Below the pieces are notes generated by a model. The model was not told the DNA's origin. It ran no database searches and was given only the letters and a program-made list of their open reading frames with translations. The position numbers and the translations under genes were made by a program. A stretch of 64,000 nt of DNA from Chiloscyllium plagiosum (lineage: Eukaryota): positions 34,845,537 through 34,909,536 of the forward strand of contig NC_057719.1 of the NCBI RefSeq assembly GCF_004010195.1, read 5' to 3'. Every line of letters begins with the position of its first letter. Positions within the stretch are counted from its first letter, which is position 1. Shown piece by piece: positions 13,201 to 61,130 of this stretch.

Positions 13201-16200
13201 AACTACAATCATGTTTCACAGGTTGGCGCAACATCGAGGGCTGAACAACCTGTACTGCGCTGTAATGTTCCATGTTCTGTGTGATTAAATGAATGCAGTA
13301 AATATATTACCTGAAAACATCATATGAAGTTTTTCAAGTACTTCCACCTGGTCCAACCATAAATCAGAGACAAAAACAAACATGGCATCTTCATTTTCTT
13401 CCTCCAATTGCTTTAATTTTGTTGAAGATTTCACTGACGTAGCAGAGGGACCGCCAAAAAAGTTAATGTTGCCATAATAAGATCTAGGAGACAAAGCATG
13501 AAAAGTTTCAAGGTCCTTAAGTGTAAGCAATTGAGTAACCATGAATACCAAGGATCATAATCCTACGTCAGCAATTTGAACTTCCAATTAACATAAGATT
13601 TCTTCTAAACTGTCAAATGCCAATTTATGAACAGGAAGAATGCTAGAGTTTATTTTCACTATTTATAAATTTAGTTAATAGATTTAAAACAATTCACACA
13701 AAGCAGTTTAGTAAATTAGAGTCACAGAGATGTATAGCATGGAAACAGACCCTTCGGTCCAACCCTCCCTGCTGACCAGATATCCCAACCCAATCTAGCC
13801 CCACCTGCCAGCACCCGGCCCATATCCCTCCAAACCGTTCCTATTCATATACCCATTCAGATGCCTTTTAAATGTTGCAATTGTACTAGCCTCCACCGCT
13901 TCCTCTGGCAGCTCATTCCATACACATACCACCCTCTGCGTGAAAATGTTGCCCCTTAGGTCTCTTTTATATCTTTCTCCTCTCACCCTAAACCTATGCC
14001 CTCCACTGCTGGACTACCCCACCCCAGGGAAAAGACTTTGTCTATTTATTCTATCCATGCCCCTCATTTTAGATTACATTACAGTGTGGAAACAGGCCCT
14101 TCGGCCCAACAAGACCACACCGACCCGCTGAAACGCAACCTACCCATACCCCTACATTTACCCCTTACCTAACACTACGGGCAATTTAGCATGGCCAATT
14201 CACCTGACCTGCACATCTTTGGACTGTGGGAGGAAACCGGAGCACCCGGAGGAAACCCACGCAGACACGGGGAGAACGTGCAAACTCCACACAGTCAGTC
14301 GCCTGAGGCAGGAACTGAACCCGGGTCTCAGGCGCTGTGAGGCAGCAGTGCTAACCACTGTGCCACCGTGCCGCCCTCTTAAATTTTATGAACCTCTATA
14401 AGCACACTCTTCAGCCTCTAACGTTCCAGGGAAAAAAGCCCCAGCCTATTCAACCTGTCCCTATAACTCAAATCCTCCAACCCTGGCAACATCCTTGTTA
14501 AATTTTTCTGAACACTTTCAAGCTTTAAAATATCCTTCCAATAGAAAAGAGACCAAAATTGCATGCAATATTCCAGAAGAAGATATAGACTGTAGGGAAA
14601 TAGATGGTGACAACTTGCAAAATGTCCATATTACAGAGGAGGAAGTGCTGGATGTCTTGAAATGGGTAAAGGTGGATAAATCCCCAGGATCTGATCAGAT
14701 GTATCCGAGAACTCTGTGGGAAGCCAGAGAACTGATTGCTGGGCCTCTTGTTGAGATATTTGTATCGTCGATAGTCTCATGTGAGGTGCCATTGTTTAAG
14801 AGTGGTAAGGACAAGCCAGGGAACTATAGACCAGTGAGCCTGACCTCGGTGGTGGGCAAGTTGTTGGAGGGAATCCTGAGGAACAGGATGTACATGTATT
14901 TGGAAAGGCAAGGACTGATTAGGGATAGTCAACATGACTTTGTGCATGGAAAATCATGTCTCACAAACTTGATTGAGTTTTCTGAAGAAGTAACAAAGAG
15001 GATTGATGAGGACAGAGCAGTAGATGTGATCTATATGGACTTTAGCAAGGCGTTCGACAAGGTTCCCCATGGGAGACTTATTAACAAGGTTAGATCTCAT
15101 GGAATACAGGGAGAACTAGCCATTTGGATACAGAACTGGCTCAAAGGTAGAAGACAGCGGGTGGTGGTGGTGGTGGAGGGTTGTTTTTCACACTGGAGGC
15201 CTGTGACCAGTGGTGTGTCACAAGGATCGATGCTGGGTCCTCTACTTTTTGTCATCTACATAAATGATTTGGATGCGAGCATAAGAGGTACAGTTAGTAA
15301 GTTTGCAGATGACACCAAAATTGGAGGTGTAGTGGACAGCAAAGAGGGTTACCTCAGATTACAACAGGATCTTGACCATATGGGCCAGTGGGCTGAGAAG
15401 TGGCAGATAGATTTTAATACAGATAAATGAGAGGTGCTGCATTTTGGGAAAGCAAATATCTTAGCAGGACTTATACACTTAATGGTAAGGTCCTAGGGAG
15501 TTTTGCTGAACAAAGAGACCTTGGAGTGCAGGTTCATAGCTCCTTGAAAGTGGAGTCGCAGGTAGATAGGATAGTGAAGAAGGCGTTTGGTATGTTTTCT
15601 TTTATTGGTCAGAATATTGAGTACAGGAGTTGGGAGGTCATGTTGCAGCTGTACAGGACATTGGTTAGGCTTAAGATTTGCTTTCCCAAAATTCAGCACT
15701 TCGCATTTATCTATATTAAACTCCATCTGCCACTTCTCATATCAAATGCCAGCAAACTTCCTTGAAACAGATACTTATCAGAAAACAACATGGTGAAAAT
15801 TACCTTGTAATGCTGGAAGGTTCAGTGGGTGGAAAACCAAACCCATTGACATGAAAAATTCCATCTTCGTACCATCCTGGAAAAGGATTCTAATAATAAC
15901 TGCCATTTATAGAGTTTATATTGATCATAAATTTACAAAAGAAGATTTTATTAACAATACATCAAACTGAATAATCAGATTCTGTCTTGTCTGGCCAACA
16001 TTCATCCGTCAATCTAAAAAACGGATTATTTGGTCACCAGTTACTATCTGAGGAACCTTGCTGTGCACAAGTCGTCTGTCACTTTTCCACTCAACAGAGA
16101 CTACCTTTTAGAAGTACTTATTTGGTCGATGGTACTTTGGGATATTCTGAAGGTACAAAATATACCATATAAGTGCAAGTTTTTGCTTTATTGCAATAGC

Positions 16201-34200: not shown

Positions 34201-35947
34201 TCCATGAACATCAATTAGCCACGAAACCCCACAACCAGCTATCCTTAGTAACCACACACGTGGACGACAAGCAACATGACGTCGACTGGGACAACACTAC
34301 CATTATAGGGCAAGCCAAAAAAAGAACAGCCAGGGAATTCCTAGAAGCATGGCACTCATCCACAAACTCCATCAACAAACACATCGACCTGGACCCAATA
34401 TACCGACCACTACAGCGGACAGCTGAAGCTGACAACCAGAAGCGGCAGGGACAGGCCACTATAAATGCCGGAGGAAACACCACAGAAGCACTTCACAGGA
34501 GGCTCCCAAGCACTGAGGACGTCACCAAATAGGGGACGAAACGTTTGCAACAAAAATTTCCAGCTCAGCGAACAGAACCACAACAGATCTAGTATTTGAG
34601 AAATGACTGAAAAATATATAAAATACTGTACCGCGGAAGAGTCTGACTTGTGAACTCACTGAAATCTTTTACCAAAATCAAGCCAAGTTCATTATTACAC
34701 GTATTACTTAAGAGACTTACTTATGGGTTCCATACCCATAGGAAGGGCCTCAACCAGGATCTTGGGCTCATGTCACACTACAAATGACCACCATTGCACT
34801 ATACCTCACACATGCATCTCTCACAGACTTAAGACACTCTACACTTACATACACACACATATATACTCTCTCTCACACTCAGAACCCACCAACACAGACA
34901 GACACGCAGACACAAAGACCCACAATCACACATATACATATATTTTGTGGGGTGAATTTGTACTTGCAGAGTTCCATTGTACTTTGCTCAGAAACTGCAT
35001 GAATTCTTGTAAAACTCTGTTATCTCACTTTTTAGATTAGAATCAATCTAAACATCATGGCATAGACAGAGAACACAGGGGGGTAACACCTTCAACATAT
35101 TGTCGAGCTTACACCAATTGTTACAGTTAACCTGAGAATGCAACTTTTAAAAAAAAGTTTTGTCATTTACACATGAAAGAAGTGAAATTATCATGGTATT
35201 CGAACAGATGAAAGACTCAACAGACAATCAAGGTATTTTTCAATGTATAATTTCAGTTACATCACACTGTAAATTTTTGCTCTAAATTCTGTGCCTTACA
35301 ATTGTGTCCTCCACTACCACCTGATGAAGGAGCAGTGCTCCGAAAGCTATTGCACTTCCAATTAAACCTGTTGGACTATAACCTGGTGTTGTGTGATTTT
35401 TAACTTTGTATACCCCAGTCAAACACCGGCATTTCCAAATCATACTTAAGAGACAGTAGTGATATAATGTATTTTATATATGAACATACAGGTATGGTAT
35501 ACAGCTTTAGACTAACCGACATAGAAACAGGTTAAACGAACCATTTTAACAAATACTAGCTAACACTAACTAATGAAGAACATTTGAAGTCAACCAATGT
35601 TAGTGTTAGCTTCTAATTTTTTTTAAGATTACTTACAGTTTGGAAACAGGCCCTTCAGCCCAACAAGTCCACACCGAAGCGCAACCCACCTAGACCCATT
35701 CCCCTACATTTATCCCTTCACCTAACACTACGGGCAATTTAGCATGGCCAATTCACCTAACCCACACATTTTTTGGGCTGTGGGAGGAAACTCCACAGTC
35801 AGTCGCCTGAGGTGGGAATTGAACACGGGTCTCAAGCGCTGTGAGATAGCAGGGGTTTTGAAATAACTAATTTCCTACTTACGATCTCAAGATTAACCCG
35901 TGCATTTTAAAAGCAGCTGAAACTTTGTTCTTCACTTTCGTCGCCAT
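7231..35947 (-). CDS. POLE2: DNA polymerase epsilon subunit 2, whole gene, 19 coding exons, 1581 nt / 526 aa
   Basis: Manually spliced exons give one open frame [22 protein letters not shown]...[28 protein letters not shown], colinear with vertebrate POLE2 as I recall it. Exon lengths are 65,101,76,78,94,75,84,57,49,73,173,90,55,60,78,109,177,68,19. All introns are GT-AG except intron 8 (AT-AC). Confidence 0.97.
7484..7551 (-). CDS. POLE2: POLE2 exon 18
   Basis: [22 protein letters not shown](S); 68 nt. Confidence 0.96.
8009..8185 (-). CDS. POLE2: POLE2 exon 17
   Basis: [59 protein letters not shown]; 177 nt. Confidence 0.97.
10615..10723 (-). CDS. POLE2: POLE2 exon 16
   Basis: [36 protein letters not shown]; 109 nt. 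Confidence 0.97.
10837..10914 (-). CDS. POLE2: POLE2 exon 15
   Basis: [25 protein letters not shown](R); 78 nt. Confidence 0.96.
11388..11447 (-). CDS. POLE2: POLE2 exon 14
   Basis: [19 protein letters not shown](R); 60 nt; CAGTAG tandem acceptor. Confidence 0.94.
11509..11727. mobile_element. Tc1/mariner-pogo type MITE
   Basis: TIRs CAGGTTGTTCTGCTATAA / TTATAGTAGAACTGACTG with TA on both sides. Confidence 0.8.
12507..12561 (-). CDS. POLE2: POLE2 exon 13
   Basis: [17 protein letters not shown]; 55 nt; preceding intron only 83 nt. Confidence 0.96.
12645..12734 (-). CDS. POLE2: POLE2 exon 12
   Basis: [29 protein letters not shown]; 90 nt. Confidence 0.96.
13311..13483 (-). CDS. POLE2: POLE2 exon 11
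   Basis: [57 protein letters not shown]; 173 nt. Confidence 0.97.
13716..15737 (-). mobile_element. CR1 LINE with 5' inversion (3' part minus 13716-14574; inverted RT part plus 14576-15670)
   Basis: ORF 14495-15430 carries RT motifs [27 protein letters not shown]; very similar to the uninverted copy at 36640-38350. Confidence 0.9.
14069..14375 (-). mobile_element. HE1-type SINE inside CR1
   Basis: Near-identical to 1245-1557. Confidence 0.9.
15804..15876 (-). CDS. POLE2: POLE2 exon 10
   Basis: [23 protein letters not shown](R); 73 nt. Confidence 0.96.
16502..16550 (-). CDS. POLE2: POLE2 exon 9
   Basis: [16 protein letters not shown](G); 49 nt. Confidence 0.95.
16551..17615 (-). other. U12-type (minor spliceosome) AT-AC intron, POLE2 intron 8
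   Basis: 5'ss ATATCCTTTT (17615-17606). Branch point TTCTTTAAC (16569-16561) lies 10 nt before the exon. Terminal AC (16552-16551). Joining gives in-frame LSKA|QFHSG. Confidence 0.95.
17243..17579 (-). mobile_element. Penelope pLTR fragment in the U12 intron
   Basis: Homologous to 1984-2330; 12-bp TSD AGATTTAAACTG at 17231 and 17580. Confidence 0.85.
17616..17672 (-). CDS. POLE2: POLE2 exon 8 (followed by U12 AT-AC intron)
   Basis: [19 protein letters not shown] then ATATCCTTT; 57 nt. Confidence 0.95.
17765..18540. mobile_element. Nested CR1 3' fragments in both orientations
   Basis: CR1 3' ORF2/UTR-like sequence; plus fragment about 18015-18487 lies within a minus fragment. Confidence 0.65.
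18613..19196. mobile_element. Solo LTR
   Basis: TG...CA ends, 4-bp TSD AATC (18609-12, 19197-200); related inverted copy ends at 31277. Confidence 0.8.
19357..19584. mobile_element. Fold-back mini element made of two inverted Penelope termini
   Basis: About 88-bp imperfect inverted arms; 12-bp TSD AATTCCAGCAGA at 19345 and 19585. Confidence 0.85.
20046..20129 (-). CDS. POLE2: POLE2 exon 7
   Basis: [28 protein letters not shown]; 84 nt. Confidence 0.96.
20276..20575 (+). mobile_element. HE1-type SINE
   Basis: Same head/V-domain/tail as other copies. Confidence 0.9.
21143..21217 (-). CDS. POLE2: POLE2 exon 6
   Basis: [25 protein letters not shown]; 75 nt. Confidence 0.96.
22620..22713 (-). 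CDS. POLE2: POLE2 exon 5
   Basis: [31 protein letters not shown]; 94 nt. Confidence 0.95.
23360..23540 (-). mobile_element. Diverged, truncated HE1-like SINE
   Basis: GGGCAATTTAGCATAGCCAATCCACCTA segment and tail. Confidence 0.65.
23786..23863 (-). CDS. POLE2: POLE2 exon 4
   Basis: [32 protein letters not shown]; 78 nt. Confidence 0.96.
24737..24812 (-). CDS. POLE2: POLE2 exon 3
   Basis: [28 protein letters not shown]; 76 nt. Confidence 0.95.
25400..25990 (-). mobile_element. Old CR1 3' fragment
   Basis: [20 protein letters not shown] resembles the CR1 RPHLEYCVQFWSP motif. Confidence 0.7.
26365..26465 (-). CDS. POLE2: POLE2 exon 2
   Basis: [36 protein letters not shown] acceptor, GTAAGT donor; 101 nt. 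Confidence 0.95.
26640..27805 (+). mobile_element. CR1 LINE 3' portion, decayed
   Basis: [19 protein letters not shown]..; [18 protein letters not shown]. Confidence 0.85.
28570..28880 (-). mobile_element. Decayed LINE RT fragment (same family as 61300-62090)
   Basis: [13 protein letters not shown] / [11 protein letters not shown] resemble RT motifs B and C. Confidence 0.55.
29670..30365 (+). mobile_element. Decayed Penelope GIY-YIG fragment
   Basis: Homologous to 2750-3420 in opposite orientation. Confidence 0.75.
30405..30898 (+). mobile_element. CR1 RT fragment
   Basis: [31 protein letters not shown]. Confidence 0.85.
30899..31277. mobile_element. Truncated LTR related to 18613-19196
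   Basis: Reverse complement of the end is TGTTGTGGACCAGACCACATCCCCTCAAAA..AAGAAGGTA, matching the start of the 18613 LTR. Confidence 0.6.
33930..34586 (+). mobile_element. Penelope-like element 3' part (GIY-YIG)
   Basis: [13 protein letters not shown]...[31 protein letters not shown]...AREFLEAWH; hammerhead-like CTGAGGA..GACGAAACGT at about 34513-34544. Confidence 0.9.
34717..35442 (+). mobile_element. Penelope 3' end/pLTR with hammerhead
   Basis: Homologous to 1984-2770; 12-bp TSD TACTTAAGAGAC at 34705 and 35443. Confidence 0.88.
35318..35352 (+). ncRNA. Minimal type I hammerhead ribozyme motif
   Basis: CAC-CUGAUGA-A-GGAGC-AGU-GCUCC-GAAAGCUA-UUG; intact core, one mismatch in stem I. Confidence 0.65.
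35626..35852 (-). mobile_element. Internally deleted HE1 SINE about 30 nt into POLE2 intron 1
   Basis: HE1 tail and partial head; V-domain missing. Confidence 0.8.
35883..35947 (-). CDS. POLE2: POLE2 exon 1 (coding part)
   Basis: AGG ATG GCG ACG...; [21 protein letters not shown](S); donor GTAAGT. Confidence 0.93.
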
Positions 35948-35954
35948 CCTGCAC

Positions 35955-35968
35955 TTTTGGCGCCAAAA
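35955..35968. promoter_or_regulatory. Palindromic E2F binding site
   Basis: TTTTGGCGCCAAAA, a perfect 14-bp palindrome 7 nt upstream of the POLE2 ATG; matches the E2F consensus on both strands. Confidence 0.85.
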
Positions 35969-36164: not shown

Positions 36165-36640
36165 TTCAAATAGAGAAGGACGATGCGGGTATAGAAATCA
36201 GGGAGGGAGACTGTGATGTACTTAAACAAATTAGCATTGAGAGATATGAGATATTAGCAATTTTACTAGACTTGAAAGTGGATAAAAATCCCGAGGCAAA
36301 TGGGATGTATCCCAGGTTTCTGTCGGAGGCAAAGGAGGAGATTGCAGGGGCCCTGACATTAATTTTCAAATCTACTTTGGCCACAGGAGGGGTCCCAGAA
36401 GATTGGAGGAAAGCTAATGTGGTACTACTACTCAAGATGGGCGGTAAGGATAAACCAGGAAACTGCACACTATTGCGTCTAATATCTGTGGTAGTGGAAA
36501 CAAATTCTAAGGGATAAACTTAATCTTTACTTGCAGAGGCATGGATTAATCAAGGATAGTAAGAATGGTTTAGTCTAGTGAAAATCATGTTGAATAAGTT
36601 TGATTGAATTTCTGAGAAGTGTACATGAAGGCAGAACAGT
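36165..36640 (+). mobile_element. Older CR1 ORF2 fragment
   Basis: KVDKNPEANGMYPRFL..VPEDWRKANVV..KDKPGN. Confidence 0.8.
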
Positions 36641-38350
36641 GATGGAGATGTGCAGCACGTTAACAGACTCTTCAGTCGACCTCGTCCATGCCGACCAAAT
36701 ATCCCAACCCAATCTAGTCCCACCTGCCAGCACAGGCCCATATCCATCCAAACCCTTCCTATTCATGTACCCATCCAAATGCCTTTTAAATGTTGCAATT
36801 GTACCAGCCTCCACCACATCCTCTGGCAGCTCATTCCATACACGTACCACCCTCTGCGTGAAAAAGTTGCCCCGTAGGTCTCTTTTATATCTTTTCCCTT
36901 TCAACCTAAACCTATGCCCTCTCGGTCTGGACTCTTCGACCCCAGGGAAAAGACCTTGTCTATTTACCCTATCCATGCCCCTCATGATTTTATAAATCTC
37001 TATAAGGTCACCCCCTCAGCCTCCAACACTCCACGGAAAACAGCCCCAACCTGTTCAGCCTCTCCCTATAGCTCAAATCTTCCAACCCTGGCAACATCCT
37101 TGTGAATCTTTACTGAACCCTTTAAAGTTTCACAACATCTTTCCGATAGGAAGGAGACCAGAATTGCACACAATATTCCAAAAGTGGCCTAACCAATGTC
37201 CTGTCCAGCCGGAATATGATTTCCCAAATCCTGTACTCAATACTCTGACCAATAAAGGAAAGCATAACAAACGCCTTCTTCACTATCCTATCAACCTGCG
37301 ACTCCACTTTCAAGGAGCTATGAACCTGCACTCCAAGGTCTCTTTGTTCAGCAAAACTCCTAGGACCTTACCATTAAGTGTATAAGTCCTGCTAAGATAT
37401 GTTTTCCCAAAATGCAGCACCTCGCATTTATCTGAATTAAACTCCATCTGCCACTTGCCCATATGGTCAAGATCCTGTTGTAATCTGAGGTAACCCTCTT
37501 TGCTGTCCACTACACCTCCAATTTTGGTGTCATCTGCAAACTTACTAACTGTACCTCTTATGCTCGCATCCAAATCATTTATGTGAATGGCAAAAAGTAG
37601 AGGGCCCAGCACCAATCCTTGTGGCACTCCACTGGTCACAGGCCTCCAATCTGAAAAACAACCCTCCACCACCACCCTGTCTTCTACCTTTGAGCCAGTT
37701 CTGTATCCAAATGGCTAGTTCTCCCTGTATTCCATGAGATCTAACCTTGCTAATCAGTCTCCCATGAGAAACCTTGTCGAACGCCTTACTGAAGTCCATA
37801 TAGATCACATCTACTGCTCTGCCCTCATCAATCTTCTTTGTTACTTCTTCAAAAAACTCAATCAAGTTTGTAAGACATGATTTTCCACGCACAAAGCCAT
37901 GTTGACTATCCCTAATCAGTCCTTGCCTTTCCAAATACATGCACATCCTGTCCCTCAGGATTCCCCCTAACAACCTGCCACTACTGAGGTCAGGCTCACT
38001 AGTCTATCGTTCCCTGGCTTGTCTTTACCGCCCTTTTTAAACAATGGCACCACGTTTGCCAACCTCCAGTCTTCCGGCACCGTCCCGTGACTATTGATGA
38101 TACAAATATCTCAGCAAGAGGCCAAGCAATCACTTCTCTAGCTTCTCACAGAGTTCTCGGGTTCACCTGATCATGTCCTGGGGATTTATCCACTTTTAAC
38201 CGTTTCAAGACATCCAGCACTTCCTCCTCTGTAATATGGACATTTTGCAAGATGTCACCATCTGTTTCCCTACAATCTATATCTTCCATATCTTTTTCCA
38301 CAGTAAATATTGATGCAAAATATTCATTTAGTACCTCCCCCATTTTCTAT
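36640..38350 (-). mobile_element. 5'-truncated CR1 LINE between POLE2 and KLHDC1
   Basis: Frameshifted RT ORFs ([35 protein letters not shown]). Confidence 0.92.
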
Positions 38351-39115
38351 TAGATTTATGTTGATGTGGCGTGCAAAATACTTCATGCAAGATACAACAG
38401 ATCTATTTCATTGAAGCAAATAAATTACAAAGGAATGAGGGGAATTATTGTACAATAAAGAACACATATGACTATTAAATTCAATAATCAGCTTCAAAAC
38501 AAGAAGTAATGATGTGAAGCTGCAGGACTTCCTTCCTCAAGCTCAATCACTAGGTCAGTATAAAAAGACCACTAACCCTGAAACAAAAGTATACGCCAAT
38601 AGCACAGATACTTTAATGATCTCCTCAAAGGTTTCCTGAATATCCCTGTCAACTCATGGGAGCATCTAATCCGTTATCGACTAAAATGGGGTTGAATTGA
38701 GACGACATTGAACACATCCGAGATTTTATCCGGAATATGCAGGGAGACAAATTCGAGAGGTCAGCACAAACCTCCGAGAAATTCTGCTACCTGTCCCTCC
38801 AGTCACCAGCTTCCCCACATATGACACTATCTGCAGATTATGAACTAAACTAGCCATATGGAAGCAAATCATTCTTGATCCTAAGGGACTGCCTAAGAAC
38901 ATATATTATCAAAACATATATTGTATTGTCATTGGAGCAATAACAACATAAAAATAGGAAATGCATTTCTGCATTTAGCGGTATGCACAGACACAAGTCA
39001 TGTTTCTGTAATTATAAGCAGCTGATGCTGCTGCTGCAGTATTTAGAGACGCTTGATTTCCCGGATCGATCGTCTTCCCTGTTGCCTATTGCCCGGATGG
39101 AGTAGAGGCGCGGAA

Positions 39116-39211
39116 ATGGCCGATTCCGGCATTAACTGGGTGGCGGAGGAGAGAAGCGGCCATTGTGCGGTTTTGGTTGGCAACCATCTATATGTGTGGG
39201 GTGGTTATGTG
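39116..39211 (+). CDS. KLHDC1: Kelch domain-containing protein 1, first coding exon 1a (canonical-like)
   Basis: MADSGINWVAEERSGHCAVLVGNHLYVWGGYV then GTAAGT. Matches the KLHDC1 N-terminus as I recall it. Head-to-head with POLE2 as in other vertebrates. Confidence 0.92.
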
Positions 39212-41364
39212 GTAAGTTTATGTTGGTTGGCGAGCAGAGTCCAGCTTGGATCGTGTTACCCTTTGCCCAGAGTCTCTGTCCTGTCCCTTTTATATCTTCA
39301 TCTGTTCGGCCTTTGTAGACTCGAATCCAAGGCGAGTATCACCTCGTAACCTCCATTCTCGTGTCAGGTTTTTGATTATTAGTCTCTGGTTCGCGAAATG
39401 GTTGGGTACGGGTTTGAATTGTGTGAAGGTGGGAAATCAAATAACCCCTGGCACCTTGCATTAGGTTCAGACGTCACTTAAATGTCGCCTTGCAACATGA
39501 CCGCTTCTGTTGTTCAGGCTCCAGCATATATGCAGTAACTTGCTCCTGACCACTTCTGTTGTTGTACACTTGGTCGCTTCAATTTTTGGAAAGGTTTGAA
39601 GTGTTTACAGAACAGCGCATCGCAATTTGCCTTTTATTTTGGCCCCAATCTCATGACATGAATGAGGGAGCGGAGTGGGAGATGAGGGGGAGGGAAATGA
39701 TTGAAGCGGGACGTGTGGAGGGGAGCTGTGCGGGGGGGAGAAGGCACTGTCAATAATTGGGCCAAAATGCAAGTCCAGATTAACCCATCTGCCTTCATGA
39801 TTTATGTACCAACAAGAACTTACCAGTTAATTTATTTTGACTTGTTTTCAATGACTTTCTCCACATTTCTTGCTGCTTTTCAGATTTTTTGGTGTCTCAT
39901 GTCTCGGAGAAATGGAATATAATGTATTATTGAAACAATTGACATTGCGTTGTAAAACGTACGTATAACATACCTCTAAGGCCACAAGCATTGTAAAAGT
40001 TAATCACTTCTAACTTTTTACAAATAAAAGAGCACTATTATTAAGTGGAGGATTATTGTATAAACTTTACTTATCTGGTTTCCGTGATTTGAAAAAAAAC
40101 CCACCATATTACAACGACAATGTTGGCTAGAGCTTGGACAATCTGTAGAGTCCGTTATTTGTATAGGATCTCGAAGGAAAGTTAATATGGAAAATGTATT
40201 TCTTGATCCATAAGAATTACTATCTGATCACAATTCATGCAACCAACCCATAAAATCATTTTTGTTTCTGAATGAAACAGTGCAGAACCGATTGTAGCAA
40301 TATGAATGTAAAGAAGTCTACACATTTTAAAAATGTTGACTGCGTGACAGTATTCCATTAACTAAGCTTTACAGACTAACTTGCATCGGCTATACTGAGA
40401 CAAAACTTTGCCTTTTACTCAGGATGCTTATCGTGTATATATTTTCTCCTTTAGTCACTTGGCATTCCCCATAGCTGCCCTATGTGACAGTCTTTATGCT
40501 ACAAATAACAGGAGAAATGTTTTAGAGCGAGATGGATGTGAACAGGGCAATGAAGTGAAGTGATAGAGAGGAAAAGAGACATTGGGGACTAATGGGAATT
40601 ATGCTTGTCAACTATTTGCATGCAGTGATAGTGTTTGGAACTTCTTCCTAATTCAGGGTTTCTAAATCAGTAAAAGGATAGTTTCAGCTTTACACACAAA
40701 CTTCAGTGTTCTTTACTTGCTATAGATTAAAAAATTTTATGCTGCATACTGCATTATTCCTTGGTTTCTGCAATCTTTGATCAGGAGTTGTGGCTTAGGT
40801 GAAAATTAGCAGAAGGGACTCTTGTGGTGCTGTGAAAGTGTCTGCTCCTATAAGCCAGGAGGCCTTGGTTCAATCCCACCTGCTCCAGTGGTATGTAATA
40901 ACATCTCTGAACAACTTGATAAACAAAAGTAGCAGATGTCTGGTTCACCTCATGAACAGAAAGGTGACATATTTGCTTGTATTCATTTTTACAGTTATTT
41001 AAAACAACCTTTATTAAATTCCATTTTTCAGCATTATTAATACTTTGGCATCTATGCCAACCATCCATCACAAAAGTCAACCTTTATGGATGATGTGTAG
41101 AGACCAGTTCAAACATCCTAACAGTTGTGGCAACAACACATACACCTTAAAGCAGAACTGTAGTAGTATGCAATTCCATTTTTAATGAACCTTGCAGTGT
41201 GGAGGGGCCTTTTTCCTTTACTCTGCACTCAGGCTGGTGGCTGGGGTTTGCTGAGTACAGTGCTGGTCTCCCTCTCCAGCAAGCTCTGAAACTTAAATCC
41301 TAGAATGCCATAATAGGGCAACTCCCCTGGAGAGACAGCGCTGAACAGAAATCACTGTTTATAG

Positions 41365-45296: not shown

Positions 45297-46679
45297 TACA
45301 GCTGGATTGGTGGTTCTGTTTCTTTAGTGGTTGATATATGGGGTCCAACTTTACATGTTTGCTAATGGAGTTTTTGTTTGACTATGGGATTCCAGGAATT
45401 CCTGTGCATATCTCTGTTTGATTTGTCCTAGGATAGATACATTGTTACAGTTGAATTTGCCCTTCATTGTCTGTGTGTATGGATCCAAGTGATAGCTAGC
45501 TAGTTATATCCAATTGACAAGCTCACCTTCATTTCCATGTGATCTTATTTTACTGATTTAGTCTACCATGTGGAAGTTTGTTAAAGGTTTTACTAAAATC
45601 CAAGTTTAAAAAAAAAGTCTCCTGCTCTGCCCTCATCAATCTTTTCAACTACTTTATTTAAAAACTCAATCAATCAAGTTGGTGAGACATGAGATTTTCC
45701 TTGCACAGGTGATACCTGTTGTCTATATCTAATATGATTCTTTTTTTATTCTTTACTAGAACTTCAATCTTTAATCATCCATTGTTCCTAAATTATACCA
45801 GTATTATCTTTCACTCTGACAGGAACATAATGCTTCTGTACTCTCATTTTCACCCTTGTGAACTGGGTAACTGGAGGGAATCTATTCCCACTCACCAGAT
45901 GACACTGATTTTTATACTAATTTGCAAAGGAGCAAATGTGGTATGTGAGAAATATTTTTTACACAGCAAGTGCTTAATGCATTCCAAATGCTATGTGGAA
46001 GTGTAACACAGGCAGGATCATTCAAGTGATTTAAGATGACATTAGATAATCATTTGAATAGGAAAAATGTTTACATTACTGGAGGAAAAGTCAGAAGAAT
46101 GGCATTGAGTCACAATGCTTATTCAGACACCTCGTGCAGATGTGAACGGTCAAAGGCCTTCTGCATCATAACAACAGTTCTGTGATTTGTCCATGGTATA
46201 AAGAATTGCCAGTGTTTGTTGATGAATGGGATGCCAATCAAGTGGGGTGTTTTGTCATGTGTGCTGTTTTTAGAGCTGCATTCATCCAGTGAGCTGGAGT
46301 GTGTTCTATCAGCATGCCTAACTTGTGCCTTCGGTCAGCAACTCCCTGCAGAAATCCCAACAAATAATTTGACCTGGGCAAAAATATTTTTGCCAGTGAT
46401 GTTCCAGATTAATATTGTACCTTTTTAATGTAAGCAACAACTGCCACGTAGAAAGGCAATGTTGAACTTGATATGGCAGAAGATTGCTTTTTACTGGGAA
46501 GTTATGAAAAATTGGCCTCATTCAATTTTCATTCGCTAAAAGGGGTAACTTAAATTGAGATTTAGTACATTAGATCATTGTGGCCCTTTTGTGAACCTCA
46601 ACACTTAAATTGCAGTCTGGCCTTGCATACCAAAAATAGTTAGTGCGCGAGCCAGGATATCACCATCTTTGTTGCCAAC

Positions 46680-47095
46680 CAAAACAACCGTGCATTTTCT
46701 ATTGGTTGCTTTCTCCTTCTTTCCCTTCCCCGGCCATTGTTGTTTTTCGAGCAGACTTTTCGAAACTGAAAGTGTACCATGAAGGTTAGATGACTGAAGA
46801 AACTGATGGTGACGTACCAAGGAGCACACCACACGCCCAATAATTTTAAACTCCAACGGCCACCACGGCAGCGCGTGCGGGCTCCGTCATCGTAGTGACG
46901 TCCCATGAGCGACTGTGCGGCCGGTACCTGATTGGCTCGGGTACTGAAAGGGAACGAGCTGAGGGTGCTGATTGGCCAGGCGCTGTACTGCGAGGCAGCC
47001 GCATGTGATTGGGTGTGGGTGTCACTGAGACAGGCGTCGAGAGTGGGACTAGGAGAAAAAACGACGCCGGAAGGTTGACTTGAGGGAAAATGGCT
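46680..47095 (+). promoter_or_regulatory. CpG-rich promoter upstream of exon 1b
   Basis: ATTGG (inverted CCAAT/NF-Y) at 46701, 46931, 46971, 47008. CRE-like TGACGT at 46810 and 46896. ETS CCGGAAG at 47067. YY1-like AAAATGGC over the ATG. CpG locally retained. Confidence 0.8.
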
Positions 47096-47185
47096 GAATC
47101 CCAGTATTGGTCACGAAGAATACAAGAAAACCACCACCACGCGGTTTTTAACGACGGATTTCTTTATGTGTGGGGTGGCTACGTG
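47090..47185 (+). CDS. KLHDC1: Duplicated alternative first coding exon 1b of KLHDC1
   Basis: MAESQYWSRRIQENHHHAVFNDGFLYVWGGYV then GTAAGT. Same length (96 nt) and phase 0 as exon 1a; 14/32 aa identical. Kozak-like AAAATGG. Confidence 0.85.
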
Positions 47186-48099
47186 GTAAGTGCCATTTTA
47201 CTGATCCAGTAAAGCCGTGTCTGCGCCTTGAGAAAGCGCGGGACTGTTGAACACCCAGTATTTTACAACTAATGTTACAATATATTTCAATATAATCTAA
47301 TACTGGATTAAACATTCTTGCAGTTGGTCAAATAGTTGGAACCTTAAAATCGGGGTTGTCAGGTTACACATGACCAAATTGTTAAACTGCCACATTAGCC
47401 TCTATTAAGATACTTATGGATCTTATTTTGTACCACCTGCTCTTGGAAGAGATGAATCTAACCACTATCGTGTGTTGTTTGTTTGATCTAGGTTCCCGAT
47501 TTTGGGAAATGTGATGCCACCATCCTAACCTAATTATATTTCTGTTCTCAGTCGTCATGTTGGGTGAATTATTAAATGAGGCATATCAGATTGTGAACCA
47601 TCGCGGACCTCTGCTAGAAGAGGTGTGTTTTGCAGAAGATTGGCTTGTTGATTTTTTTGGGGGGGGGGGGGGGGGGGTAGAAGAGTGATAAATAAAAGAC
47701 GAAGAAAATCGTCATTTCAGGATCGTTTTGGCAATACTTTACATATGAGTTGTAGATTTAAGTTCATTCAGGATCTTATTACTTGAGTCACTAGTAAATA
47801 CTAAATATCTTGAGGTAAATGGTATAATACTCTATTGAGTCAGAAGAAAATAGATTTTGGTGTGTTTAGAAAGTTACCTTTCAGGCTGTTGAAATAGTTA
47901 ATGCAGTTGAGCCTCTTTGTGATGTCATGAAAGGTGAGTTGTTACAATTACATTGTAGAGTAATGTAAATACCAAAATGATTTTGTTTCATGTAAATATA
48001 GCAATTGGTAATACATGCAGTTCTTGGATAATATTGATTTGAATAGTAAAAGGACACTCATTAACATAACACCTTTCATAGCCTCAGCACAAACTGAAG

Positions 48100-57759: not shown

Positions 57760-59520
57760 TTATAGAGTCATACAGCATGGAAACAGACTTGACAGTCCAA
57801 CTAGTCCGTGTTGATTAGGCATCCCAATCTGATCATTTGCCAGCATTTGGCCCATAGCTCTTTTCAACTCCATATATCTATCCAGATGCCTTTTTTTAAA
57901 TGTTGTAATTGTATCCACTTGCTCTGGCATCTTATTCCATACATACACCAACTTTTTTTTTTTTGCGTAAAAATATACTGCCCCTTCAATCCCTTTAAAA
58001 CTTTCCCCTCTGACTTTAATCCTATGCCCTCTAGTTCTGGACTCACATCCCCCAACCCCCCCCCCTCCCTCACTCAGGGAAAAGACCTTGGTCTGTTCAC
58101 CCTATCAATGCCCTTGATTTAATAAACCTCTAAAAGCAGTCTCCAATGCTCTGGGGGAAAAGCCTGTTCAGCGTATCCCTATAGCTCAAACCCACCAGTC
58201 CCCTCAAAGTCCTTTGAAATCTTTTCTGAACCCATTCAAGTTTAACAACAATGTTTCTATAGCAGAGTGACCAAAATTGTATGCAGTACTCCAAATTTGG
58301 ACTTACCAGTGTCCTGTATGGCCACAATATGATATCCCAATTCCTGTACTCAAATGCTTTGACCAATGAAAGCAAGCATACCAAATACCACCTTGACGAC
58401 TCAACCTGCAACTCCACTCTGTAAGAACAATGCCCCTGCACCCCTTGGTCTCTTTTGTTCAGTAATGCTAACCAGGGTCCTACCATTTTAAGTGTAAAAG
58501 TCCTGTCCCTGGTTTGCCTTACCAAAGTGCATCACCTCACATTTATCTCAATTAAATTCCATCTGCCATTCCTTGGACCATTGGCTCATCTGATCAAAGT
58601 CCTGTTGTACTGTTAGATAATCTTCACTGTCCACTAGAACATCTATTTTGGTTTGTCTGCAGACTTGCTAGCTATACCTTCTATATTCACATCCAAGCCA
58701 TTAAAATACTTGATAAAAGGCAGTGGACCCAGCACTGATCCTTGTGGCACTCCACTGGCCACATTGTACACTCTGATAAACAACCCTCCACTATTGCCCC
58801 CTCTGTCCTATCGTCAAGCCAATTTTCTATCCATTTGGATCCCCCAAGAGCCATGTCATCTAACCTTATTAGCCAGTCTACCATGCGGAACCTTGTTGAA
58901 TGCTTTGCTGAAGTCCATATGGACAATGTCTATCACTCTGCCTGTTTCAGTCTTCTTGGTCACCTCTTCAAAAATCTCAATCAAGCTAGTGAGACACTAT
59001 TTCGCATGCACAAAGCCATGCTGACTATCCCTAATTGGTCCTTGCCTTTCTAAATGCATGTAAAAACTGCCCCCTCAGAATTCCCTGCAACAACTTACCC
59101 AACACTGATGTCCGGCTCACCAGTTTATAGTTCCCTGGCTTTTCCTTACATTATAAATAATGGTACCACATTAGCCAACCTCCAGTTTTCTGGCAGCTCA
59201 CCCATGGTTTCAACAAATGTTTCAACAAGAGGCCCAACAATCTCTTCCCAAGCTTCCCACAAATTTCTGGGATTTAACTACCTTTTTTATGCATTTTAAG
59301 ACCTCCAGCACCATTTTTCTTTTTTTTAATGTGAACTCTTTTGAGATGTCACTATTTATTTTGTCAGGTTCCCTAGCTTCCGTGTCTTCCACAGTAAATA
59401 CTAATGCAAAATATTTACTTCGTATCCCATCTATGTCCCATAATTCCACACAAATGGCCAATTGATCTTTAAGGGGTCCTATTTTCTCCCCTTTTGCTAT
59501 CTTGCCCTTAATGTATTAAT
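57760..59520 (-). mobile_element. Decayed CR1 LINE
   Basis: YRTLVSPNLEYCIQFWS and RT remnants; homologous to 36640-38350. Confidence 0.85.
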
Positions 59521-61059: not shown

Positions 61060-61130
61060 ACATATGAAAATAACGAAGTTTACTTACCAAATGATGAAAT
61101 CTGGGTTTATGAAATAGAAAGTGGTGTATG
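61060..61130 (+). CDS. KLHDC1: KLHDC1 exon 2 (gene continues beyond window)
   Basis: ttttttgttccag|TYENNEVYLPNDEIWVYEIESGV(W)|gtaagt; 71 nt; in frame with both first exons. Confidence 0.93.

Follow-up and report, generated by a model that had tools for sequence, protein, structure and literature searches.

The KLHDC1 gene of cartilaginous fishes carries a second first coding exon, here termed 1b, which is an ancient, tandem-duplicated alternative to the canonical first exon (1a) and is unusual in altering residues of the degron pocket. The arrangement of two first exons is evident from both the sequence and the protein records, and the promoter-like regions from the sequence. In the mechanism proposed here, each of two promoters would serve its own copy of this exon, both copies being spliced in phase 0 onto a common exon 2, and the choice of promoter would exchange one wall of the degron pocket, because what the exon contributes to one propeller blade is its pocket loop together with its two opening strands. 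Form 1a, judging from human KLHDC1, would be the ordinary di-glycine C-degron reader of a CUL5-EloB/C ligase. Form 1b would build the same blade and keep both cullin recruitment and the carboxylate anchor, with one pocket wall reshaped and different degrons selected, a reading to which we give an even chance of being correct.

The window, i.e. the whole stretch of 64,000 nucleotides of Chiloscyllium plagiosum DNA that was analyzed (Table 1), is read from its sequence as holding one KLHDC1 gene with two candidate first exons. Exon 1a is identical in 32/32 residues to the KLHDC1 of this species and exon 2 is likewise identical; this identity to the annotated protein, together with the conserved exon 2, marks the locus as a KLHDC1 orthologue, and POLE2 lies head-to-head with it, as expected of such an orthologue. 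The human KLHDC1 and POLE2 genes are placed in the same manner. A tblastn search of the window with four KLHDC1 proteins from sharks and rays matched only 1a, 1b and exon 2, and hence no other KLHDC1 exon between 1a and 1b. The two first exons are 7,974 nt apart, and the intron between 1b and exon 2 spans 13.9 kb. Exons 3 onward lie beyond the window and were read from the proteins of relatives. The product of exon 1b consists of the N-terminal tail and the pocket loop, followed by the two strands that open the first kelch repeat.

Table 1. Features of the KLHDC1 locus in the window (positions counted from the first nucleotide of the window)
Feature	Position	Strand	Basis or remarks
KLHDC1 exon 1b, coding part	47090..47185	+	32 codons, ATG to GTG/GTAAGT donor
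Codons 12-17, Q-E-N-H-H-H replacing E-R-S-G-H-C	47123..47140	+	Alignment with exon 1a
GTAAGT splice donor of exon 1b, phase 0	47186..47191	+	Sequence
KLHDC1 exon 1a, coding part, canonical R-S-G-H, then GTAAGT donor	39116..39211	+	
Common exon 2, 71 nt	61060..61130	+	Phase-0 acceptor after pyrimidine tract and CAG; GTAAGT donor
POLE2 first coding exon, head-to-head with KLHDC1	35883..35947	-	Pfam Dpoe2NT, E=0.0012; the 22-residue POLE2 piece does not reach the curated cut-off
CpG island, strongest in the window, likely 1b promoter	46601..47300	+	23 CpG per 300 nt; the median of the window is 3
Weaker CpG island around exon 1a	38901..39600	+	12-16 CpG per 300 nt

Aligned without gaps, 1b and 1a agree in 14 of their 32 residues and in 51 of the 96 nucleotides, and the two proteins differ in 18 residues. 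The initial annotation had listed R13E, S14N, G15H and C17H as replaced and H16, A18-V19 and the stretch LYVWGGYV (L25-V32) as retained; all of these were found again, with E12Q in addition. Both exons open with an ATG that has a purine at -3 and close with a phase-0 GTG/GTAAGT donor. The BLOSUM62 score of 1b against 1a is 56, whereas the second-highest score in the window is 22 and the maxima of 20/20 codon-block shuffles lie at 17-29, so that the likeness cannot be ascribed to chance. The flanks are unrelated (32/100 nt identical upstream and 23/100 downstream); the likeness thus reaches no further than the ATG on one side and the donor on the other, which is what an old duplicate would show if it had been preserved for the part that codes for protein. 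No third copy of the exon with a donor was found in the window. The pair therefore corresponds to a tandem duplicated exon substitution, i.e. two homologous tandem exons of equal length and phase in one gene.

Other origins were considered and rejected. Derivation of 1b from exon 1 of KLHDC2, which is represented in the exon tree by one KLHDC2-like fragment (P0007) only, is at odds with its length, its M-A-[ED]-[ST] start and its terminal Val, all of which match 1a. A separate paralogous gene is dismissed by the single exon 2 that follows both copies and by the identical downstream sequence within species, and matches of the lone 1b exon to RCC1-like and RelK/YoeB proteins are at chance level.

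The 1b isoform postulated in the initial annotation is borne out by protein records: the exon does form an isoform and is found spliced to exon 2 in four named species and in an assembled contig. A protein search with the 1b frame gave no match, since these forms sit inside protein clusters; they were found by listing the cluster members (P0303, P0311, P0315, P0316 and P0301). Exon 1b is joined to exon 2 in the whale shark Rhincodon typus (XP_048456293, 31/32 residues identical to the window), the electric ray Narcine bancroftii (XP_069772486, 30/32) and an isoform of the sawshark Pristiophorus japonicus (29/32), while the chimaera Callorhinchus milii (elephant shark) has five 1b records (18/22 identical over positions 11-32). 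The contig, of 1,746 nt, codes for a 354-residue protein over many exons, again with 1b (29/32 identical) joined to exon 2, and must be spliced, since the intron between them in the window is 13.9 kb long. Among the matches listed (16 of 63 main-cluster members), 1b occurs in at least 4 of the 18 named chondrichthyan species, and no Chiloscyllium 1b isoform is among these matches. Both forms are on record in Narcine, Pristiophorus and Callorhinchus, which demonstrates alternative use in these genera, and we infer the same for the species of the window. Many records from sharks and rays (P0008, P0009, P0015, P0019, P0020, P0304-P0307 and P0314) lack the first blade, some beginning farther downstream (327 residues) and others apparently without exon 2 (338 residues); these are probably unproductive splice forms. 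The 1b isoforms are present in automated annotation, and no description of exon 1b was found among the openly accessible papers listed by the literature search.

The conservation of 1b exceeds that of 1a, with 30/32 versus 25/32 residues kept between the window and Narcine and 29/32 versus 27/32 between the window and Pristiophorus. Residues Q12, E13, N14 and H16 are invariant in 6/6 distinct 1b exon sequences, that of the window included. In the exon tree, which has 32 columns and in which the chimaera N-terminus is right-justified, all 1b sequences form one group with a support of 100, its stem being long and its tips short, and the placement of this group among the chondrichthyan 1a exons is supported at 54 only. 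The exon would thus have changed in a burst after the duplication and been nearly fixed since, which is the pattern of a new function. Chimaeras and sharks separated about 400 million years ago, and the distribution of the records indicates that 1b has been retained since before that split. That 1b is a decayed duplicate, or an artefact of gene models with no protein product, is hence largely refuted and has next to no probability left: the lone exon does score weakly against the Kelch_6 profile (E=0.11, against 0.00036 for 1a), yet its open frame, ATG, donor and length are all kept, orthologues occur in chimaera as well as in shark and ray, the spliced form is present on a short contig, and the coding part has been preserved while the flanks diverged. 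By these sequence comparisons, the 1b product is used and ancient.

The residues that 1b replaces are close to invariant elsewhere. Among the other KLHDC1 representatives in the full alignment, Arg13 is present in 100/102, Ser14 in 98/102 and Gly15 in 99/102. In 79 pattern-anchored matches, taken from the best 120 (the 41 dropped had no exon 1 or were missed by the pattern, many of them being visibly R-S-G-H), the counts are 78/79, 77/79 and 77/79, respectively, the exceptions being the chimaera 1b and one coelacanth form. Bony-vertebrate cluster members carry R-S-G-H in all 48 cases with a detected exon 1 (73 examined). Across 1,498 kelch blades from 150 proteins, a background chosen by likeness to 1a and therefore biased towards it, dominated by one family and by long multi-kelch proteins, Glu13 occurs once and His17 once, while Asn14 is found 37 times and His15 30 times. 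From these frequencies, positions 14 and 15 are variable, whereas 13 and 17 are constrained and seldom altered as they are in 1b. The latter two, which the initial annotation had counted with the residues lining the pocket, are accordingly not borne out as pocket walls; from kelch geometry we take them to be scaffold and channel positions.

The fold is predicted to survive these replacements. In matched AlphaFold models, built on the same 20-row alignment for one protein with 1b (P0303) and one with 1a (P0004), the mean pLDDT is 74.1 and 75.4, respectively, the pTM is 0.72 for both, and the same strands are formed at residues 17-21, 24-28 and 31-33. The comparison of models proposed in the initial annotation thus upholds the retained fold, and it does not reach the side chains in question: in both models the pLDDT is below 50 up to residue 14-15 and the side chains of 13-15 are not placeable. 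This low N-terminal confidence is not specific to 1b, since the 1a model is equally low. Superposed on KLHDC2 (8ebl), the 1b model gives a Z score of 29.6 and an rmsd of 3.5 over 278 aligned residues, i.e. a six-bladed kelch propeller, and its C-terminal region, helical in the model, aligns to KLHDC2 up to residue 375. The whale-shark 1b protein also carries the R/F-S-R carboxylate anchor, with R214, R219 and S248 in the places of KLHDC2 R236, R241 and S269. By sequence, modelled fold and anchor, the 1b protein is a KLHDC1 isoform.

The structural alignments of the 1b model begin at residue 13, which falls on KLHDC2 residue 32, KLHDC3 14, KLHDC10 92 and KEAP1 362; position 14 therefore corresponds to KLHDC10 Ser93, and position 15 falls on KLHDC3 Asn16. 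One structural study describes a contact of KLHDC10 Ser93 with the C-terminal carboxylate and a hydrogen bond from KLHDC3 Asn16 to the degron backbone (PMC11568203), and the S93A mutant of KLHDC10 loses Ala-tail binding (PMC10591846). In other blades, the places of 14 and 15 are taken by KLHDC2 S269/W270 and KLHDC3 R240/S241. The premise of the initial annotation that the two residues following the blade arginine line the pocket is therefore sound. Its further suggestion that C-degron specificity might be lost in 1b does not follow. The KLHDC2 degron contacts named in the part of PMC11377542 that could be consulted (R236, R241, S269, Y163, W191, W270 and K147) map to KLHDC1 R214, R219, S248, Y142, W169, W249 and K126, respectively, and all seven are encoded by shared exons, none by exon 1, and are intact in sharks and rays. 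A retuned pocket is for this reason likelier than a lost one.

According to the proposed mechanism, form 1b would retain the modelled propeller, the C-terminal box and, through the shared exons, the R214/R219/S248 anchor, while the small residues Ser14, Gly15 and Cys17 give way to Asn, His/Gln and His/Tyr, and Arg13 to Glu. These replacements should narrow and repolarize the first-blade side of the pocket, so that 1b would still clamp a C-terminus and would choose different residues upstream of it, and thereby a different set of substrates. The same placement of the seven contacts can, however, be read as meaning that 1b is a regulatory duplicate only, i.e. a second promoter, both forms reading the same di-glycine degrons with little contribution from the first blade. 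In KLHDC2, the closest solved paralogue, that blade may indeed touch the degron little, since it goes unmentioned in the contact lists consulted (PMC11377542); Tyr31, the equivalent of KLHDC10 Tyr110, is kept in 1b; the CpG island at 1b is the stronger one; and ligand residues are in most cases retained between duplicated exons (80.6%; PMC9741552). We regard this alternative as somewhat unlikely. It leaves unexplained why an R-S-G that is near-invariant in vertebrates became Q-E-N and was then fixed from chimaera to ray, and the position of Ser93 is conserved in KLHDC2 and has been proposed as a general C-degron contact (PMC10591846).

The opposite extreme would be a plugged pocket, in which the bulky residues at 14, 15 and 17 and the loss of Arg13 block C-degrons, and 1b serves as a decoy for EloB/C-CUL5 or receives a folded or internal partner on top of the propeller, in the manner of LZTR1. 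The rarity of Glu13 and His17 in the biased blade set speaks for it, as do one LZTR1 blade with His-His at 15-16 and the retention of 1b in Callorhinchus, where S248 and K126 are gone. Nevertheless, 29-31 of the 32 residues are fixed in the sharks and rays, more than a mere decoy would require, and even Callorhinchus has kept R214 and R219; this explanation is accordingly judged unlikely.

The histidines of 1b have also been considered as a site of metal or pH sensitivity, in which His15 and His17 would bind zinc or titrate, resembling the His/Cys surface of FEM1B, which provides a precedent among C-degron receptors. All 5/5 elasmobranch 1b sequences do read His-His-His at positions 15-16-17. 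The corresponding residues in Callorhinchus are Gln-His-Tyr, so that the histidine ligands are not conserved across the 1b orthologues, and His16 is the ordinary kelch histidine, present in 1a as well. This speaks against a conserved site for the sensitivity on which the initial annotation had speculated, and such gating is highly improbable.

Of note is the state of the whole protein in Callorhinchus (P0027 and P0301). Its 1a-type exon carries H16R and V27D and, on this evidence, looks decayed. In the shared exons, G71R, D125H, K126E and S248L affect otherwise near-invariant pocket residues; S248 is present in 114/114 and K126 in 115/115 other rows, and with S248L the R/F-S-R anchor is broken. 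Of the 10 positions that correspond to 14/15 in other blades, 4 have changed, compared with 9 of the remaining 112 conserved columns (Fisher p=0.012, in a post hoc test on one species; 1 of the 13 changed columns, 276, is also changed in sharks). The pattern fits a lineage in which 1b would prevail and the di-glycine anchor is no longer required, and the chimaera KLHDC1 may no longer read di-glycine.

A second device of this kind appears in the coelacanth. Latimeria chalumnae (P0031 and P0299) has a second divergent first exon, R-E-S-H-F, on exon 2 beside the canonical exon; these are predicted models, and it is the canonical exon that appears in the current X1/X2 records listed. As in 1b, positions 14, 15 and 17 are changed. 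In contrast to 1b, Arg13 is kept, and the exon scores 50-72 against 1a and 40-55 against 1b and falls outside the 1b clade in the tree. These features make it probable, from the sequence, that it stems from a separate duplication. Such observations invite a bolder version of the proposal, which is advanced as a tentative possibility: promoter choice would toggle one cullin-RING receptor between two degron codes, 1b reading a terminal or internal degron that is unread by known KLHDCs, with the chimaera wholly reliant on 1b, its 1a exon decaying and its other blades rebuilt, and the coelacanth device being independent. No second divergent first exon was present in the tetrapod, lungfish and ray-finned fish KLHDC1 records examined.

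The arrangement may be compared with known systems. Tandem duplicated exon substitutions number 236 events in human and are ancient and conserved, with N-terminal cases being common (PMC9741552). As in those events, two homologous exons of KLHDC1 are used alternatively in otherwise identical proteins; unlike the ligand residues that the events mostly keep between copies, the pocket positions of 1b have changed. Neither "kelch" nor "KLH" occurs in the main text of that study (PMC9741552). KLHDC1 is known as a CRL5 substrate receptor for di-glycine C-degrons (PMC7090344), and the gene described here conforms to it in the identity of 1a to annotated shark KLHDC1, the head-to-head POLE2, the anchor and a putative C-terminal box, differing in that the first-blade R-S-G is missing from 1b. 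KLHDC2, KLHDC3 and KLHDC10 share the six-bladed propeller and derive their specificity from the two residues after the arginine of each blade (PMC11568203); their pockets diversify by gene duplication, whereas those of 1a and 1b do so by an exon swap within one gene.

It is established that the specificity of C-degron receptors differs between paralogues. A pocket-changing exon swap within a single gene would, if confirmed, constitute a new way to widen the degron code, and a natural blade swap by which a family of ligases already employed in targeted degradation is reprogrammed. Exon 1b also provides a naturally selected, foldable variant that bears on the contribution of the first blade to binding by KLHDC1 and KLHDC2. 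Should both forms bind alike, 1b would be a well-conserved but ordinary second promoter.

The CpG island in which 1b lies is a likely candidate promoter, judging from its CpG content and motif matches. The latter comprise two CCAAT boxes (46929 and 46969), three CRE half-sites (46810, 46885 and 46896) and an ETS-like site (47067). At the other end of the locus, a palindromic E2F-like site at 35955 lies just upstream of the POLE2 exon, and the exon and the site (35883-35968, minus strand) share a small cluster of CpGs at a distance of 3.2 kb from exon 1a; the POLE2-like exon piece has no match in the PDB. Nine other long frames of the window matched no Pfam family at E < 0.01, and two intron read-through frames had no exact match in the protein collection. 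Decayed copies of LINE reverse transcriptases, at most 89% alike, occur at 14402-15765, 36575-38333, 57760-59424 and elsewhere, and are ordinary shark repeats.

A 15-nt exact inverted match joins the region upstream of 1b (46671-46685) and exon 1a (39170-39184), with an E value of 0.005 in the 1.3-kb pair; it may be due to chance, and it resembles half an RFX box. A 156-codon minus-strand frame at the 1b island has no Pfam match. A YY1-like motif and a possible donor are located on the minus strand at 46640-46740, which suggests that the 1b island may also fire in the antisense direction.
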